A DNA stretch of 64,000 nt, from NCBI GenBank assembly GCA_041662665.1, contig JBAZSC010000003.1, forward strand, positions 143,115 through 207,114, given 5' to 3'. Position numbers and translations under genes: made by a program. Positions 6,114 through 37,340 of the stretch are shown here, piece by piece; positions within the stretch are counted from its first letter, which is position 1, and each line of letters opens with the position of its first letter. This DNA comes from Patescibacteria group bacterium. Its GTDB lineage: Bacteria; Patescibacteriota; JABMPQ01; JAQVVF01. Below the pieces are notes generated by a model that was not told the origin of the DNA, searched no databases, and worked only from the letters and a program-made list of their open reading frames with translations.

Positions 6114-6695
6114 ATGGGAAAGTATTTCAGACCGTCATGGGATGACTATTTCATGGCGATTGCAAAGATCGTAGGAACAAGGGGGACTTGCGACAGACTG
6201 AGAGCTGGAGCAGTATTGGTAAAAGACAAAAGAATTATTTCAACAGGTTATAATGGCGCTCCTCCAGAATTAGGACATTGTGATGATATTGGTCATTTGA
6301 TGGAAGAAGGTCATTGTGTTAGAACGATTCATGGCGAGCATAATGCTATTTTGCAAGCTGCAGTATTGGGTGGTATTTCAACTGTTGGGTCAACATTGTA
6401 TACTCTTTATAATCCTTGTATTCATTGTGCAAAATATGTGGTAATGGCTGGAGTAAAAAGAGTAGTTATCGGTCAGATTTATCGTGGTGAAAAAGCATTA
6501 GAATATTTGAAAAAAGCTGGTTTGGAAATTGAATCATATAAACCAAGTTCAGAGTGGGATCAAAATTTGTTAAAATTATTTTCAGCAGAAATAGAAAAAG
6601 TTGAAGCAAAAGAAGGAAATGTAAAATTAGTTGAAGATAGTAATAAAATTGATGATTTGAATATTGTTCAACCAAATCAGACGGTCGCACTCTAA
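6114..6695 (+). CDS. comEB: dCMP deaminase (ComEB/cytidine-deoxycytidylate deaminase family)
   Basis: The zinc-binding motifs HGEHNAI (HxE) and PCIHCAKYV (PCxxC), and WDDYFMAIAKIVGTRGTC at the N-terminus. Confidence 0.8.
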   Translation: MGKYFRPSWDDYFMAIAKIVGTRGTCDRLRAGAVLVKDKRIISTGYNGAPPELGHCDDIGHLMEEGHCVRTIHGEHNAILQAAVLGGISTVGSTLYTLYNPCIHCAKYVVMAGVKRVVIGQIYRGEKALEYLKKAGLEIESYKPSSEWDQNLLKLFSAEIEKVEAKEGNVKLVEDSNKIDDLNIVQPNQTVAL

Positions 6696-6747
6696 TATGT
6701 TTTCGAATGTTTGCGAATTTATTTTCTAATTAACTAATTGAACTAAA

Positions 6748-7326
6748 ATGAAGCATAAAGTGATTGCTGTTGTAGGGATGCCAGGAGCGGGCAAAACTGA
6801 AGCAGCGATGTATTTATTAAAAAAAGGATTAAACAGAGTCTATTTTGGTGATTGTTGTTTTGATGAGATTAAAAAGAGAGGTTTAAAAACAAATGCCAAA
6901 ATTGAAAAAGAAATCAGAGAAGAATTAAGAAAAAAACATGGAATGGGTGCATTTGCAATTCTTTCAATGCCAAAAGTAAAAGATGCTTATAAAAAAGGAG
7001 ATGTAGTAATTGAAAGCATGTATTCTTGGGATGAATACAAAATAGTTAAAGACAAATTTAAGAATGATTTTAAAGTTATTGCAATTTGTGCTAACACTGA
7101 ACTTCGACACAAGAGATTAACAGGTAGAAAAGAATTGAAGCATGGTGTTGCTCGAAAATTTTCTTTGAAAGATGCAGCTGAAAGAGATTTTGTTCAAATC
7201 GAAAATATTGCAACAGGCGGACCGATTGCAATTGCTGATTACATTATTTTGAATGAAGGATCAAAGAAATCATTATTTGAAAATTTGGATAAAATTTTAA
7301 AAAAGTTAAAAGTAAGAATTAAGTAA
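6748..7326 (+). CDS. P-loop nucleotide/nucleoside kinase family protein (dNMP-kinase-like)
   Basis: Walker A VGMPGAGKTEAA at the N-terminus, ~190 aa. Sits next to dCMP deaminase. Confidence 0.45.
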   Translation: MKHKVIAVVGMPGAGKTEAAMYLLKKGLNRVYFGDCCFDEIKKRGLKTNAKIEKEIREELRKKHGMGAFAILSMPKVKDAYKKGDVVIESMYSWDEYKIVKDKFKNDFKVIAICANTELRHKRLTGRKELKHGVARKFSLKDAAERDFVQIENIATGGPIAIADYIILNEGSKKSLFENLDKILKKLKVRIK

Positions 7327-7338
7327 TTTTTTAAGATA

Positions 7339-7368
7339 AAAGTCCTGCAAGAAACAGGACTTTTTTAT
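7339..7368 (+). terminator. Rho-independent terminator
   Basis: gtcctg-caagaaa-caggac followed by TTTTTT. Confidence 0.75.
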
Positions 7369-7422
7369 TGCTAAAAAACGTATTATTGGATAGAATTATG
7401 CTGAATTAATTAATATTTTTTT

Positions 7423-8661
7423 ATGATATTTGCACATGCGCCCGCAGGATATTTGATATTAAGATTCACAGAAAAATTTTGGAATAAGAAAAAAATTTTC
7501 AAAAAGAAAAAAAGATTGGTTTTATATTTAATTGGAATCATATTTTCTATTTTTCCTGATTTTGATTTGTTTTACCATTATTTTTATTCTGCGAACACTC
7601 CACATCGTCAGTATATTTCGCATGGAATTATTGTTTATCTTGTTTTGTTTTTGTTGATTTACTTGATTGGATTATTAGCAAAAAAACAGTTTATTAAATC
7701 AATTGCTTGGGTGATTTTGCTTGGTGTTTCTACTCATTTATTTCTAGATACTATTGCGTCTGGAATTGCTATTTTTACTCCATTATCTTCTATGATGATT
7801 GGATTAAGATCAATCTGGTTTTTAAAATACAGTTTTTTTACAACAAATTTGTTTTTGATAAATTGTTCTTTAGAATTGTTAATTACTCTTTTTGCGATTG
7901 ATGTTTTTGTCCATGATTTTGTTAAAAATGCAAAATTAAAATTAGGAATTTTTATTGCAAGTATTATAATTTTTATTTCTGGATTTATCGGTTTAGCTTA
8001 TGTGAATGCGCATATTTATAATGGCGGACATTTTGATGCTTATTTTGAAGATAATGACCATGATGGAATTATAAATTTGGTTGATTTTGATATTGATGGT
8101 AATGGAATTTTAAATATTAATGATGCAGATGCTAATGGAAATGGCTTTTCTAATAAAGAAGATATTTTGAGCGCGACAAATTTGATGATTGGCAGATGGT
8201 ACGATTTTACAGAAGGAAGTTGGGGCGAGCTTTTTTCTAGATGGGGATTATTAACAAATTCTGATTTGATATCAAAAACATATGAAGCAGCTGGAATTTA
8301 TTTTCAAACAGAATTTGATAAAGATTACAAAAATAATCCAAATGACTATGTTGGCGTACCTGATGATCCATTGTTTGATCGAAGGACAGAAAATATTTAT
8401 GCATTTTGTAAACATAATGATCGATTGTTTGATGGTAAGAATTTGGAAGTTGGAGATATTGTATTTTTTAATCTACCTTCGTCTGCTGACTCCGGTGGAC
8501 AAGGTAATGGTTTGGCAGGATTAGTAACTTCATTTGATAAAAATAAGGAAACTGATATAATAATAGGGGAACCTGGTAAGATGATATATGAAGAAAATTT
8601 AAACGTTTTGAATGAAAAAATGAATGGCGTAAAAGCATATTGTCGCATAGTTAAAAATTAA
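7423..8661 (+). CDS. Polytopic membrane protein with Dx[DN]xDG calcium-binding-like repeats and a C-terminal soluble domain
   Basis: At least 5 hydrophobic helices in the first 190 aa. Repeats DNDHDGIINLVDFDIDGNGILNINDADANGNG follow, then a C-terminal domain of unknown function. Confidence 0.6.
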   Translation: MIFAHAPAGYLILRFTEKFWNKKKIFKKKKRLVLYLIGIIFSIFPDFDLFYHYFYSANTPHRQYISHGIIVYLVLFLLIYLIGLLAKKQFIKSIAWVILLGVSTHLFLDTIASGIAIFTPLSSMMIGLRSIWFLKYSFFTTNLFLINCSLELLITLFAIDVFVHDFVKNAKLKLGIFIASIIIFISGFIGLAYVNAHIYNGGHFDAYFEDNDHDGIINLVDFDIDGNGILNINDADANGNGFSNKEDILSATNLMIGRWYDFTEGSWGELFSRWGLLTNSDLISKTYEAAGIYFQTEFDKDYKNNPNDYVGVPDDPLFDRRTENIYAFCKHNDRLFDGKNLEVGDIVFFNLPSSADSGGQGNGLAGLVTSFDKNKETDIIIGEPGKMIYEENLNVLNEKMNGVKAYCRIVKN

Positions 8662-10158: not shown

Positions 10159-10179
10159 AGACGTAGCATTGCTACGTCT
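10159..10179 (+). terminator. Perfect 9-bp hairpin right after the mutM stop (weak T tract)
   Basis: agacgtagc-att-gctacgtct. The T-run lies only ~8 nt downstream. Confidence 0.4.
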
Positions 10180-34942: not shown

Positions 34943-35623
34943 ATGAAAAATGTTATTGAAGCTAAGGGTTTGAAAAAAATATATAAAATGTCAAAGACAA
35001 ATATTGTTCATGCTTTGAATGGTGTTGATTTGAATGTGGAAGAAGGCGAATTTACTGCAATTATTGGACCTTCTGGATCCGGAAAATCAACTTTGATGCA
35101 TATCTTTGGTTTGTTAGACAAGCCAGATGAAGGAACTTTAATCATTGATGGAGTTGATATGAGTAATTTAAAAGACAAAGAAGCTTATAAATTGCGTGCA
35201 AAAAAAATTGGTTTTGTTTTTCAAGGATTTAATTTGATTCCGGCATTGTCAGCTTTGGAAAATATTATGTTGGCTGGAAAATATGGAGGAATGAAAATGA
35301 CTGAAAGAAAAGCCAGAGCAATTGAATTATTAAAAATGGTTGGACTAGAATCAAGAATGAATCACAAGCCAAATGAATTGTCTGGCGGACAACAGCAAAG
35401 AGTAGCAATTGCTCGAGCTTTGATGAACAAGCCAGCAATTATTCTAGCTGATGAGCCAACTGGAGAATTGGATACAAAAACATCTTTAGAAATTATTGAA
35501 TTGATGAAAAAATTAAATAAAGAAGATAATCAAACATTTTTGTTGGTTACACATAACATGGAAGTGGCGAAAGATTGTAGAAAAATTGTAGAGATGAGAG
35601 ATGGGCAAAAAATAACAAAATAA
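34943..35623 (+). CDS. MacB/LolD-type ABC transporter ATP-binding protein
   Basis: [35 protein letters not shown]. Confidence 0.88.
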
Positions 35624-35659
35624 CTAAATTATAAATAACAAAATTTCAATTAAAAATTT

Positions 35660-35690
35660 AAAACGGCCTTAAATGGCTGTTTTTGTTTTT
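35660..35690 (+). terminator. Putative rho-independent terminator
   Basis: cggcc-ttaaat-ggctg followed by tttttgttttt. Confidence 0.5.
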
Positions 35691-35705
35691 AAGTAAAAAC
35701 TTGAT

Positions 35706-35726
35706 ATCACAAATTGTGATTTCCAA
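35706..35726. promoter_or_regulatory. Operator-like palindrome ATCACAAATTGTGAT(TTCCAA) upstream of the ORF6N gene
   Basis: Perfect 7-1-7 palindrome, 50 nt upstream of ATG 35774. Confidence 0.45.
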
Positions 35727-35773
35727 AAATAACACTTTTTGAAGTTATTTTTTGAGTATGTTAAATTAATAAT

Positions 35774-36298
35774 ATGAAAAAGTATTTCATAATGCCAAGT
35801 GAAAAGATAGTCAGTAAAATATATATTATACGCAATAAAAAAGTGATGCTTGATCGTGATTTGGCATTGCTTTATGGCGTGACGACAAAGGTACTAAATC
35901 AAGCTGTTAGACGAAATATTAAACGGTTTCCAGCTGATTTTATGTTTAGATTGGAAAAACTGGAATTTGAAAATTGGAAGTCACAAATTGTGACTTCCAA
36001 TTCTGATAAAATGGGATTAAGAAAATTACCTTTTGCTTTTACTGAACAAGGTGTGGCAATGTTAGCAAGTGTTTTAAAAAGTGATCGAGCAATTCAGGTA
36101 AATATTCAAATTGTTAGAACTTTTATTAAATTGAGAGAACTATTGGCAACAAATGAAGAATTGCAATCTAAGTTAATGAGATTAGAACAGCGTTATGATA
36201 AAAAATTAAAAGAAGTTTTTAATATATTAAGATTATTATTGACAGAAAAAGAAAAACCAAAAGATGAATTGGGGTTTAAATATAAAAGAATAAAATAA
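35774..36298 (+). CDS. ORF6N-domain protein
   Basis: The N-terminal IYIIRNKKVMLDRDLALLYGVTTKVLNQAVRRNIKRFPADFMFRL...SQIVTS...LPFAFTEQGVAMLASVL matches the ORF6N fold. It contains a perfect 27-bp palindrome. Confidence 0.7.
   Translation: MKKYFIMPSEKIVSKIYIIRNKKVMLDRDLALLYGVTTKVLNQAVRRNIKRFPADFMFRLEKLEFENWKSQIVTSNSDKMGLRKLPFAFTEQGVAMLASVLKSDRAIQVNIQIVRTFIKLRELLATNEELQSKLMRLEQRYDKKLKEVFNILRLLLTEKEKPKDELGFKYKRIK
35974..36000. repeat. Perfect 27-bp palindrome TTGGAAGTCACAAATTGTGACTTCCAA inside the ORF6N coding sequence
   Basis: 13-1-13 perfect inverted repeat, sharing the core TCACAAATTGTGA with the upstream site. Encodes NWKSQIVTSN. Confidence 0.8.
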
Positions 36299-36308
36299 TA
36301 AAAATTAT

Positions 36309-36334
36309 GAACAGCCTAATGGTTGTTTTTTTAT
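36309..36334 (+). terminator. Rho-independent terminator after the ORF6N gene
   Basis: aacagcc-taat-ggttgtt followed by T8. Confidence 0.65.
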
Positions 36335-36394
36335 ATTCACTTGTTATACTTAAGTGTTAAAAATGTTCCTTCGACAAAAAGGGAGGGAGAGAAA

Positions 36395-37162
36395 ATGGAT
36401 ATACAACTGGCAATGACGATGTGGCGATTCCAGGACATTTTCGGAAGATTAAAGAAATGCATACGCTGGGGTGGATATAAGGAAAGGCATTATGAGCAGT
36501 CTTCTTTGGAGCATTCCTTTGCAATTGCACTTTTGACAGCATTTTGTGTAATGAAAGAAAAAGAATTAAAAGGACCAGCTGAAAATTTTGATCCTTTTAG
36601 AATGGTTGTTCATGCATTAGTTCATGATTTTTGTGAAGGAGCGATTGGTGATATTACTTATCGATTCAAAAATGATCCAAGACTTCTATATCTGGTTAAG
36701 TTAATTGAAAAAGAAGAAGGTTTGCGGTCAACAAGACATATATCTTTCATAGGTCCTTTTTTAGCTGAGGCTATTATCTTGGAGCCAGGCAGTCTTGAAG
36801 AAAAATTTTTCGATGCAATGGAAAGATTAGATTATTTTTTTTATGCGCTGGCTGAATATGAAATTCATAAACATTTGGATTTTGTAGCTGTCTTTGATCG
36901 ACAACACGCAAAATTAGTTGAATATGCAAGTGTATTTCCATCAGTTGCTATGATATATAGTCAAGAAGTCCAAGAATATGTTGAAAAGGAAATGAAAACT
37001 AATTGGGGTTTGATTGGTTTGGGTGGAGAGCTTAGACCTCATAAACCATGTCAAAAAGATGTTGAAGATTTGGAAGAAGCGCTGAAGCAATTATTGGCGC
37101 AACTTGCCAAGCAGAGGGAAGCCTCTGGAGAGAAAGGAGGAACAGATGCCAGCACTGTCTGA
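36395..37162 (+). CDS. HD-domain phosphohydrolase (YfbR 5'-deoxynucleotidase-like)
   Basis: LEHSFAIALL (H) ... VHALVHDFCEGAIGDIT (HD...D). AAGGGAGGGAG Shine-Dalgarno, and GC-richer than neighbours. Confidence 0.6.
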   Translation: MDIQLAMTMWRFQDIFGRLKKCIRWGGYKERHYEQSSLEHSFAIALLTAFCVMKEKELKGPAENFDPFRMVVHALVHDFCEGAIGDITYRFKNDPRLLYLVKLIEKEEGLRSTRHISFIGPFLAEAIILEPGSLEEKFFDAMERLDYFFYALAEYEIHKHLDFVAVFDRQHAKLVEYASVFPSVAMIYSQEVQEYVEKEMKTNWGLIGLGGELRPHKPCQKDVEDLEEALKQLLAQLAKQREASGEKGGTDASTV

Positions 37163-37340
37163 AAAAGAACAAGCAAGGATGAAAGCAGAAAAGCAAGAAG
37201 TTTGTACTGAATGTGGGGTACCAACTCATAGGAATTATTGTCGCAGTTGTGATGAATATTTTGAAGATGGTCATACATTAGTTTGTAATGATATGATGGC
37301 ACAAGACGCAAGACGTCATTCAGAATGTCGTACCCATTAA
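37146..37340 (+). CDS. Small zinc-ribbon protein, single-module paralogue of the 30081..30521 product
   Basis: AAAGGAGGA Shine-Dalgarno. Overlaps the upstream stop by 17 nt. Protein CTECGVPTHRNYCRSCDEYFEDGHTLVC...RRHSEC. The ACACC-TTTT-GGTGT-T8 terminator is identical to 30539-30562. Confidence 0.6.
   Translation: MPALSEKEQARMKAEKQEVCTECGVPTHRNYCRSCDEYFEDGHTLVCNDMMAQDARRHSECRTH

Follow-up and report, generated by a model that had tools for sequence, protein, structure and literature searches.

ORF6N-domain genes from many bacterial phyla carry a long palindrome inside their conserved coding region, and our comparisons show that this DNA element, rather than the peptide it encodes, is the object that selection preserves. 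We traced the element from a 64-kb stretch of Patescibacteria DNA (contig JBAZSC010000003.1, hereafter the window), in which a single ORF6N gene contains a perfect palindrome and is preceded by an imperfect copy close to a candidate promoter. The features on which the analysis rests are as follows.

35774–36298, plus strand: ORF6N gene, an open reading frame (ORF) of 174 amino acids supported by Pfam and PADLOC profile matches and a structure model
35972–36002, no strand assigned: internal palindrome, perfect 15-1-15, AATTGGAAGTCACAA-A-TTGTGACTTCCAATT
35700–35726, no strand assigned: upstream imperfect copy, CTTGATATCACAA A TTGTGATTTCCAA, 10 of 13 arm pairs, centre 35713, position weight matrix (PWM) score 33 bits
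35739–35767, plus strand: candidate promoter, TTGAAG (35739–35744), 17-nt spacer and extended −10 element TGtTAAATT (35759–35767)

The initial annotation of this DNA had reported a perfect 27-bp palindrome, TTGGAAGTCACAAATTGTGACTTCCAA, at 35974–36000 and had judged it non-random. Both statements held, and the palindrome proved to be longer, with 15-nt arms around one central base. It is centred on the first base of codon 72 and encodes N67–S77 (NWKSQIVTSN), within the conserved ORF6N core as had been described. No longer palindrome exists in the window (GC content, guanine plus cytosine, 0.31), and in 100 block shuffles of the window the longest arm reached 14 nt once and 15 nt never. The operator-like copy noted near the promoter is also real: positions 35696–35726 and 35970–36000 are identical at 26 of 31 positions, including an exact 13-nt core, TCACAAATTGTGA, found in the window at these two sites only.

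From the end of the upstream site to the ATG at 35774 is a distance of 47 nt, and from its centre to this ATG or putative transcription start about 61 nt. The site sits just 5′ of the presumed −35 box, ending 12 nt before the candidate promoter, and its centre is 274 bp from that of the internal site (35713 and 35987). The window thus displays a feature of operator pairs, namely two similar dyad-symmetric sites of which one is near the promoter. The promoter itself is proposed from sequence and conservation and is absent from the list of a consensus promoter scan; two relatives with 87–88% identical ORF6N proteins retain both it and the upstream palindrome, and the latter is conserved in relatives L081 and L086. 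Since the candidate promoter stops 6 nt before the ATG, the ORF6N mRNA may be leaderless. The internal site folds with −14 kcal/mol (z = −7.7) on either strand, the upstream site only weakly (−3.9 kcal/mol, z = −1.4). A terminator scan of the window called neither palindrome as an intrinsic terminator, neither site has a T-tract, and an Rfam 15 scan of 35500–36500 at E ≤ 10 returned sub-threshold matches only, the best over the palindrome scoring 22.7 bits against a threshold of 90 bits. One other perfect palindrome with arms of at least 10 nt occurs in the window, AGACGTAGCA-T-TGCTACGTCT (10-1-10, 10159–10179).

The palindrome is a property of the gene family. We fetched 80 genome loci with protein identities of 45–67% to the window gene and locus GC contents of 0.28–0.70, from phyla including Patescibacteria, Bacteroidota, Verrucomicrobiota, Acidobacteriota, Planctomycetota, Desulfobacterota and Gammaproteobacteria, and found the palindrome in almost all of them. 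Among 160 non-redundant ORF6N genes chosen by protein similarity or annotation, independently of the palindrome, 157 carry a homologous one with at least 10 of 13 complementary pairs, and in 150 of these 157 its centre lies 15–18 codons before the FTEQG motif. The self-complementary site spans about 27–31 bp, and its consensus, TTTGAGGTCACAA-W-TTGTGACCTCAAA, encodes L-R-S-Q-I/F-V-T-S. Most alleles have an A(n)T(m) tract at the centre, the internal site of Butyrivibrio (CAATCTG) being an exception.

We compared each gene with a null model in which its peptide was kept and synonymous codons were sampled from local codon usage. Peptide and local usage predict 5.6 of 13 complementary arm pairs, whereas 12.0 of 13 are observed, with p ≤ 0.01 in 95% of 86 genes. 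Codon choice inside the palindrome differs from that for the same amino acids elsewhere in the gene:

Glutamine: Q71 in the palindrome, CAA 69, CAG 8; Q92 elsewhere in the same genes, CAA 42, CAG 41
Arginine: R69 in the palindrome, AGG 41, AGA 14; R83 elsewhere, CGC 16, CGT 16, AGA 15
Valine: V73 in the palindrome, GTG 54; V94 elsewhere, GTG 27, GTT 24, GTA 19
Leucine: L68 in the palindrome, TTG 41; L60 elsewhere, spread over TTA, CTG and CTT

Accordingly, third-position entropy is 1.06 bits for codons 67–76 and 1.67 bits elsewhere, and rare codons are fixed within the palindrome in genomes of 28–70% GC.

The two arms also change together. In an ungapped alignment of 85 sites, 91.2% of cells were paired, compared with 75.8% in shuffles and 27–45% when the partner was slid. 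Changes on both sides were seen in 12 of 15 pairs, and compensatory cells numbered 184 against 54.7 expected, a value reached by none of 500 shuffles. Some of these compensatory changes alter the amino acids on both arms: TCA..GTG (Ser..Val) alternates with TCG..GCG (Ser..Ala), such that all 12 of the 12 genes with Ala73 (GCG) use TCG for Ser70, and is elsewhere replaced by TGC..GGC (Cys..Gly) or TTC..GGA (Phe..Gly). The arm sets AGG..ACC (Arg..Thr), AAG..ACT (Lys..Thr) and ATA..ATA (Ile..Ile) are likewise interchangeable, and TGG or TTG at codon 68 (Trp or Leu) covaries with the synonymous third base of Ser75. Mismatches on the sense strand comprise 25 of G:T type, 25 of A:C type and 39 others, showing no wobble preference. 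Some of the strongest conservation is seen at pairs ±1 to ±3, which a hairpin with a spacer of 1 nt could not form.

In 8 of the 157 palindrome-bearing genes the centre falls in codon phase 1 rather than phase 0. There, CTGGTCACAAATTGTGACCAG or CTTATCACAATTTGTGATAAG is read as ELVTNCDQ or ELITICDK instead of the usual RSQIVTS, with homologous protein on both flanks; VVENFDH is an additional reading in this second frame. More distant plasmid-borne ORF6N genes (34–46% identity, with other C-terminal domains) have their best palindrome at the same place, with different cores: GGTCGAAAATTTCGACC, found in both frames, GTTATCAAAAAATTTGATAAC and GAGATGCCAATCTGTCATCTC. Taken together, the codon choice, the compensatory changes on two arms and the use of two reading frames show the palindrome to be an element that acts in cis as DNA rather than a consequence of the encoded protein. 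The initial annotation had allowed that unrelated ORF6N genes might share the palindrome purely through the encoded peptide; the sharing is real, but the codon analysis and the second frame show that the peptide does not account for it.

The genes in question occupy varied contexts, among them type I restriction-modification operons, conjugative plasmids and plasmids of 3–4 kb with Rep and ORF6N only. On Treponema saccharophilum pTS1 (L216, 1211–3468), the ORF6N gene lies within a type I restriction-modification operon in the order methyltransferase, winged-helix regulator, ORF6N, S subunit, and has a 15-1-15 palindrome with core GGTCGAAAATTTCGACC. Two Segatella copri plasmids, L212 (NZ_CP152354.1, 2955 bp) and L213 (NZ_CP152486.1, 4140 bp), hold a replication initiator and ORF6N only according to the PLSDB gene table, which is incomplete. 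Their ORF6N genes carry a divergent palindrome in the second frame (VVENFDH, EVIKKFDNL), and a PWM scan of both plasmids found no site besides it.

Copies also occur outside the fixed position. Shuffled sequence totalling 436 kb gave no hit in the PWM scan, whereas the genome loci yielded 37 further sites. In about 27 of 81 genome loci, one or two of these precede the start codon, so that the pairing seen in the window recurs across phyla; in mapped loci the upstream centres lie 18–96 nt before the start codon and 216–347 bp from the internal centre, spacings with no obvious helical periodicity when the list was inspected by eye only. Six to seven loci have a second in-frame copy 36–54 nt away. 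Butyrivibrio has a perfect copy of its gene's own unusual allele 8 nt before the ribosome-binding site, and in Legionella the stop codon is followed, at 7 nt, by an identical copy. At a given locus, external and internal sites agree at 8.5 of 13 variable positions, compared with 7.5 across loci (p = 0.004). Strict allele matching between upstream and internal sites was rejected as a rule, the effect being modest and due to a few near-identical pairs. Tandem amplification is seen in L228 (metagenome contig Ga0114979_10091994, about 865–1171 in gene orientation), where one ORF6N ORF contains six PWM-scored in-frame tandem palindromes, or seven by peptide repeats, with a period of 45–54 nt and one 99-nt gap, between the FMFQLT and LPFAFTEQG motifs. 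All are different alleles (TCACAA, TTCCAA and TCGCAA among them), and in most the self-complementarity is complete or almost complete.

Metagenome and viral contigs extend this picture. Of 126 exact 19-mers sampled from metagenome contigs, 99 were inside ORF6N ORFs, 13 near them and 14 were orphans, some of these paired in GC-rich intergenic DNA. The exact 19-mer occurs in 43 loci of viral contigs, compared with 2 and 0 for two composition-matched control palindromes, and only about 16 of the 43 lie inside ORF6N genes, the remainder being mostly intergenic. Many intergenic phage copies are located between convergent genes or after stop codons, flanked by A-runs and T-runs. The viral-contig intergenic copies (L168–L209; for example L171:5632–5658, L178:5411–5441 and L173:725–749) represent about 17 independent contexts. 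At L180:300–420, an orphan phage palindrome stands beside more TTGTGA/TCACAA half-sites (aaATTGTGAaaaaaTCACAAaaa; ttttgtgaac), which looks like a cluster of related candidate binding sites. A search for cultured phage genomes with this ORF6N subfamily gave only 5 metagenomic records.

We tentatively propose, at a little under an even chance, that the palindrome is a duplex DNA site bound by a dimer of the ORF6N product and serving as a portable autoregulatory site or self-mark. Besides the palindrome, only the ORF6N protein is common to all loci, and hence we propose this protein as the binder. With its predicted DNA-binding domain and a long helix that possibly dimerises, it would bind a double-stranded element of two-fold symmetry. 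A site inside the gene would provide negative feedback that is independent of the promoter and travels with the gene, acting through a roadblock or through a loop formed with a second site; the upstream copy of the window, centred at about −61, would be the partner operator. Such feedback would be useful for a gene that occupies so many contexts. The site could also signal ‘self’ to a defence-type DNA binder or serve it as a decoy, comparable to aba with BstA (see below). Copies with a conserved core in non-coding DNA near the gene support a binding site, as do the likeness of external and internal sites at one locus, the tandem in-frame sites and the finding of 112 of the 126 metagenomic 19-mers inside or beside ORF6N genes. 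The low-confidence stretch of the AlphaFold model fits a segment that tolerates residues dictated by the DNA.

In the model (mean predicted local distance difference test score, pLDDT, 78), the window protein consists of the N-terminal ORF6N domain followed by a long C-terminal helix (residues 104–157), and the palindrome-encoded residues form a helix end and the lowest-confidence stretch of the domain. The match to Pfam PF10543 (E = 7.3e-34, 116 bits, cut-off 27.8) covers residues 14–100 and the full profile (positions 1–86 of 86); an alternative start is M7 at 35792.

Several observations weigh against binding by an ORF6N dimer. Read-out by a dimer leaves unexplained why arm positions that vary freely between sites, including the sites of one gene, are complementary within each site. 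Neither a PDB sequence search nor a Foldseek comparison of the AlphaFold model with the PDB yielded a significant match, DNA-bound or otherwise. The upstream site of the window is degenerate, and its core is mutated in relative L081; two thirds of loci have no upstream copy, and second copies are placed variously upstream of the gene, in-frame within it or downstream. About 27 of the 43 viral copies are intergenic with no ORF6N gene in the fetched locus, and two of the three phage intergenic copies scanned were flagged as terminator-like. Fold similarity to MerR, RacA and excisionase-type proteins was weak (E > 0.5) and was not used as evidence.

The strict symmetry at variable positions probably reflects either homogenisation by template switching at a quasi-palindrome or a need for hairpin or cruciform extrusion. 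If extrusion is what matters, the site would serve, as a hairpin or cruciform extruded from the DNA, in recombination or rearrangement by which ORF6N modules are shuffled or mobilised, with self-complementarity itself under selection. The arms do covary whichever bases they contain, even at outer positions that are not the same in the two frames or among the tandem copies in one gene, the AT-rich centre and GC-richer arms suit extrusion, the fold of −14 kcal/mol is available on both strands, and in-frame duplications with a period of 36–54 nt occur in tandem. Breakpoints cluster at the palindrome as well: 5′ fragments end at amino acids 71–77 (L030, L333), 3′ fragments begin at amino acids 66–74 (L214 and H31–33, L244, L250, L248), and in L030 and L333 a new ORF6N gene starts right after the palindrome of the truncated one, although this count is biased in that some fragments come from loci picked for carrying the palindrome. 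Yet no recombinase or HUH nuclease is conserved beside these genes, the window gene has housekeeping neighbours in conserved synteny, the centre of the palindrome is itself conserved and not free to vary, and the innermost pairs (±1 to ±3) are highly conserved despite being unpairable with a 1-nt spacer, so that we consider this explanation unlikely. An inversion switch or invertible promoter was rejected on similar grounds: in 338 loci searched by tblastn the N-terminal part never lay on the opposite strand and no inverted arrangement was seen, and no recombinase is nearby. The reading in the initial annotation was partly supported: the paired-site pattern was borne out, and it may represent any of the uses suggested there (autoregulatory operator, looping element or recombination site).

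An RNA hairpin, acting in the ORF6N mRNA on stability or translation or as a protein-binding operator, or as a terminator in phages, would account for the stable predicted stem-loop and for stem covariation around a conserved apex, the classic signature of RNA. It would also suit the many phage copies after stop codons with A-run and T-run flanks, including the terminator-like ones, and the upstream copies 18–26 nt before start codons, which are possibly in a 5′ untranslated region. It is nevertheless improbable in our view. G:U-type mismatches are no commoner than A:C-type on the sense strand, no Rfam family matches, the internal site lacks a U-tract and was not called a terminator, the ±1 pair is conserved though it is unable to form in RNA, and the upstream copy of the window lies between the terminator of the upstream gene and the presumed −35 box, probably outside the ORF6N transcript. 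The lack of wobble bias, the conserved innermost pairs, the probably untranscribed upstream copy and the empty Rfam search therefore favour a two-fold element at the level of DNA. Template switching at imperfect inverted repeats is a mutational hotspot that makes arms identical (PMC7202029), and the palindrome could be a functionless by-product, a near-palindromic coding sequence perfected and kept in this way. Arm-to-arm copying would yield covariation without selection and without strand bias, as observed, and would also affect the ±1 pair; it leaves unexplained why external, non-coding copies in different phyla retain one specific core, the persistence in two reading frames, the rare codons held at 28–70% GC, the tandem amplification and the excess in phage contigs. 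As a full account it is improbable, but template switching is likely to be a contributing mechanism. Chance, or the plain consequence of a conserved peptide, we regard as having virtually no prospect: RSQ(I/F)VTS is conserved and its codons are partly self-complementary, which accounts for about 5.6 of the 13 pairs but not for the number observed, no window shuffle attains a 15-nt arm, and the palindrome persists in a second frame. Finally, a doubtful proposal turns the relationship between gene and site around. Here the primary conserved entity would be an ancient self-complementary DNA, of which RSQ(I/F)VTS (ELVTNCD in the other frame) is largely the translation; the element would be the ligand of ORF6N and a portable self-site, and the phage copies would be targets or decoys. 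Were this true, the self-site could inactivate or titrate the ORF6N protein, or identify the replicon on which the site lies as self.

Operators inside the coding region of autoregulated repressors are known at purR O2, lac O2 and gal OI, where repression occurs by roadblock or looping. The ORF6N sites share with them the arrangement of a palindromic, operator-like site near the promoter and a second one a few hundred bp downstream in coding DNA (here 216–347 bp apart). The purR, lac and gal sites differ in that they are not perfect 27–31-bp palindromes, have no family-wide fixed codon position, force neither codon usage nor amino-acid covariation and are not kept across reading frames. Cis sites within the gene of the protein that uses them also include pac of phage small terminases, parS in spo0J, and the origin hairpins in pT181 repC and phiX174 gene A, the last two being hairpin or cruciform sites inside coding sequence. 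As in these systems, linkage of site and gene guarantees joint inheritance; unlike them, ORF6N has no features of terminase, ParB or HUH nuclease, and no role in replication, partition or packaging is indicated. On the two small Segatella plasmids the Rep gene is separate from ORF6N. The GC-flanked hairpin and the T-runs at many phage copies resemble intrinsic terminators, whereas the window sites are without T-tracts. Two repeats that bracket a promoter and the 5′ end of a gene recall invertible promoters, a likeness that ends with the lack of a nearby recombinase and of any inverted variant.

The window protein matches PADLOC PDC-S05, a candidate single-gene phage defence (PDLC04856, E = 1.9e-57), over residues 1–165 and profile positions 1–172 of 177. 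For one PDC-S05 representative, described as having a RhuM domain, a preprint reports that plating efficiency fell 10- to 1000-fold, and protection of E. coli from T7, T5 and T4 has been reported for one representative of the family. The closest functional precedent is BstA, a prophage-encoded abortive-infection protein with a KilA-N domain, whose anti-BstA element, aba, extends into bstA and works at the level of DNA rather than through an RNA or a peptide (bioRxiv 10.1101/2020.07.13.199331). By analogy, both would combine a protein with a defence-type DNA-binding domain and a short, co-inherited cis DNA element that overlaps its own gene. In contrast to the ORF6N palindrome, the 63-bp aba covers the 5′ end of its gene (the first 34 bp and the 29 bp that precede them), ends in direct repeats (CCCGCC) instead of being palindromic, and is specific to each BstA, whereas the ORF6N core is nearly universal across phyla. 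The window protein was rejected as a BstA homologue, its Pfam domain being ORF6N and not KilA-N and its C-terminus a single long helix; in the PADLOC scan of this protein only PDC-S05 models matched, with the presence of a BstA model in the library unconfirmed.

Full-text literature searches on ORF6N, PDC-S05, and the core TCACAAATTGTGA and its reverse complement brought up no account of this element. What appears to be new is a cis DNA site, with a putative function read from sequence comparison, in the gene of its presumed binding protein that is unusual in depth of conservation, in compensatory amino-acid changes and in independence of frame. Few uncharacterised small DNA-binding proteins are as common as those of the ORF6N family in bacterial genomes, plasmids and type I restriction-modification operons. 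If the palindrome is the DNA that they recognise, it would provide a specific 27–31-bp ligand for binding, structural and defence assays, and would explain the conservation of part of a ‘conserved protein motif’. The element is a natural case of a constraint at the level of DNA overriding codon usage, and even amino-acid identity, across phyla and two frames. This is relevant to gene annotation, to analyses of non-synonymous and synonymous substitution rates (dN/dS) and to codon-optimised synthetic genes, in which recoding would silently destroy the element.

Although the initial annotation had placed ORF6N proteins in phage and defence-island contexts, the window gene lies in a housekeeping neighbourhood that is neither a defence island nor a mobile element, and outside any prophage. 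Its neighbours are ATP-binding cassette (ABC) transporter, HD-domain, glnA, dUTPase and PEBP genes. In relatives the gene is found in the same place, between a MacB-type ABC transporter and glnA, and this shared housekeeping position indicates vertical inheritance in this lineage. Two hairpins delimit the gene:

35660–35683, plus strand: terminator-like hairpin with T-run, closing the upstream ABC ATPase gene and separating it from the upstream palindrome
36309–36328, plus strand: terminator-like hairpin with T-run after the ORF6N stop codon, conserved in relatives

The two (35651–35684 and 36299–36330) are mutually similar, TAAAAATTTAAAACGGCCT..GGCTGTTTTT and TAAAAATTATGAACAGCCT..GGTTGTTTTT (repeat families D3 and D8), a likeness that could be a common terminator style of the genome or the trace of a cassette duplication.

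Between ORF6N and glnA, positions 36323–37340 hold an HD-domain gene (YfbR-like 5′-deoxynucleotidase, Pfam E = 5e-11) and an overlapping Cys-rich ORF of 78 amino acids. A PADLOC scan of these two returned nothing significant, the small ORF matching PDC-M26B weakly (E = 0.007). In relatives L081 and L084, glnA directly follows ORF6N, so the segment of about 1.1 kb is an insertion here or a loss there. In L081 (GCA_964574655.1, 88% identical), glnA is called as two ORFs of 238 and 204 amino acids at 6602–7945; this split is a frameshift, a pseudogene or an assembly error.

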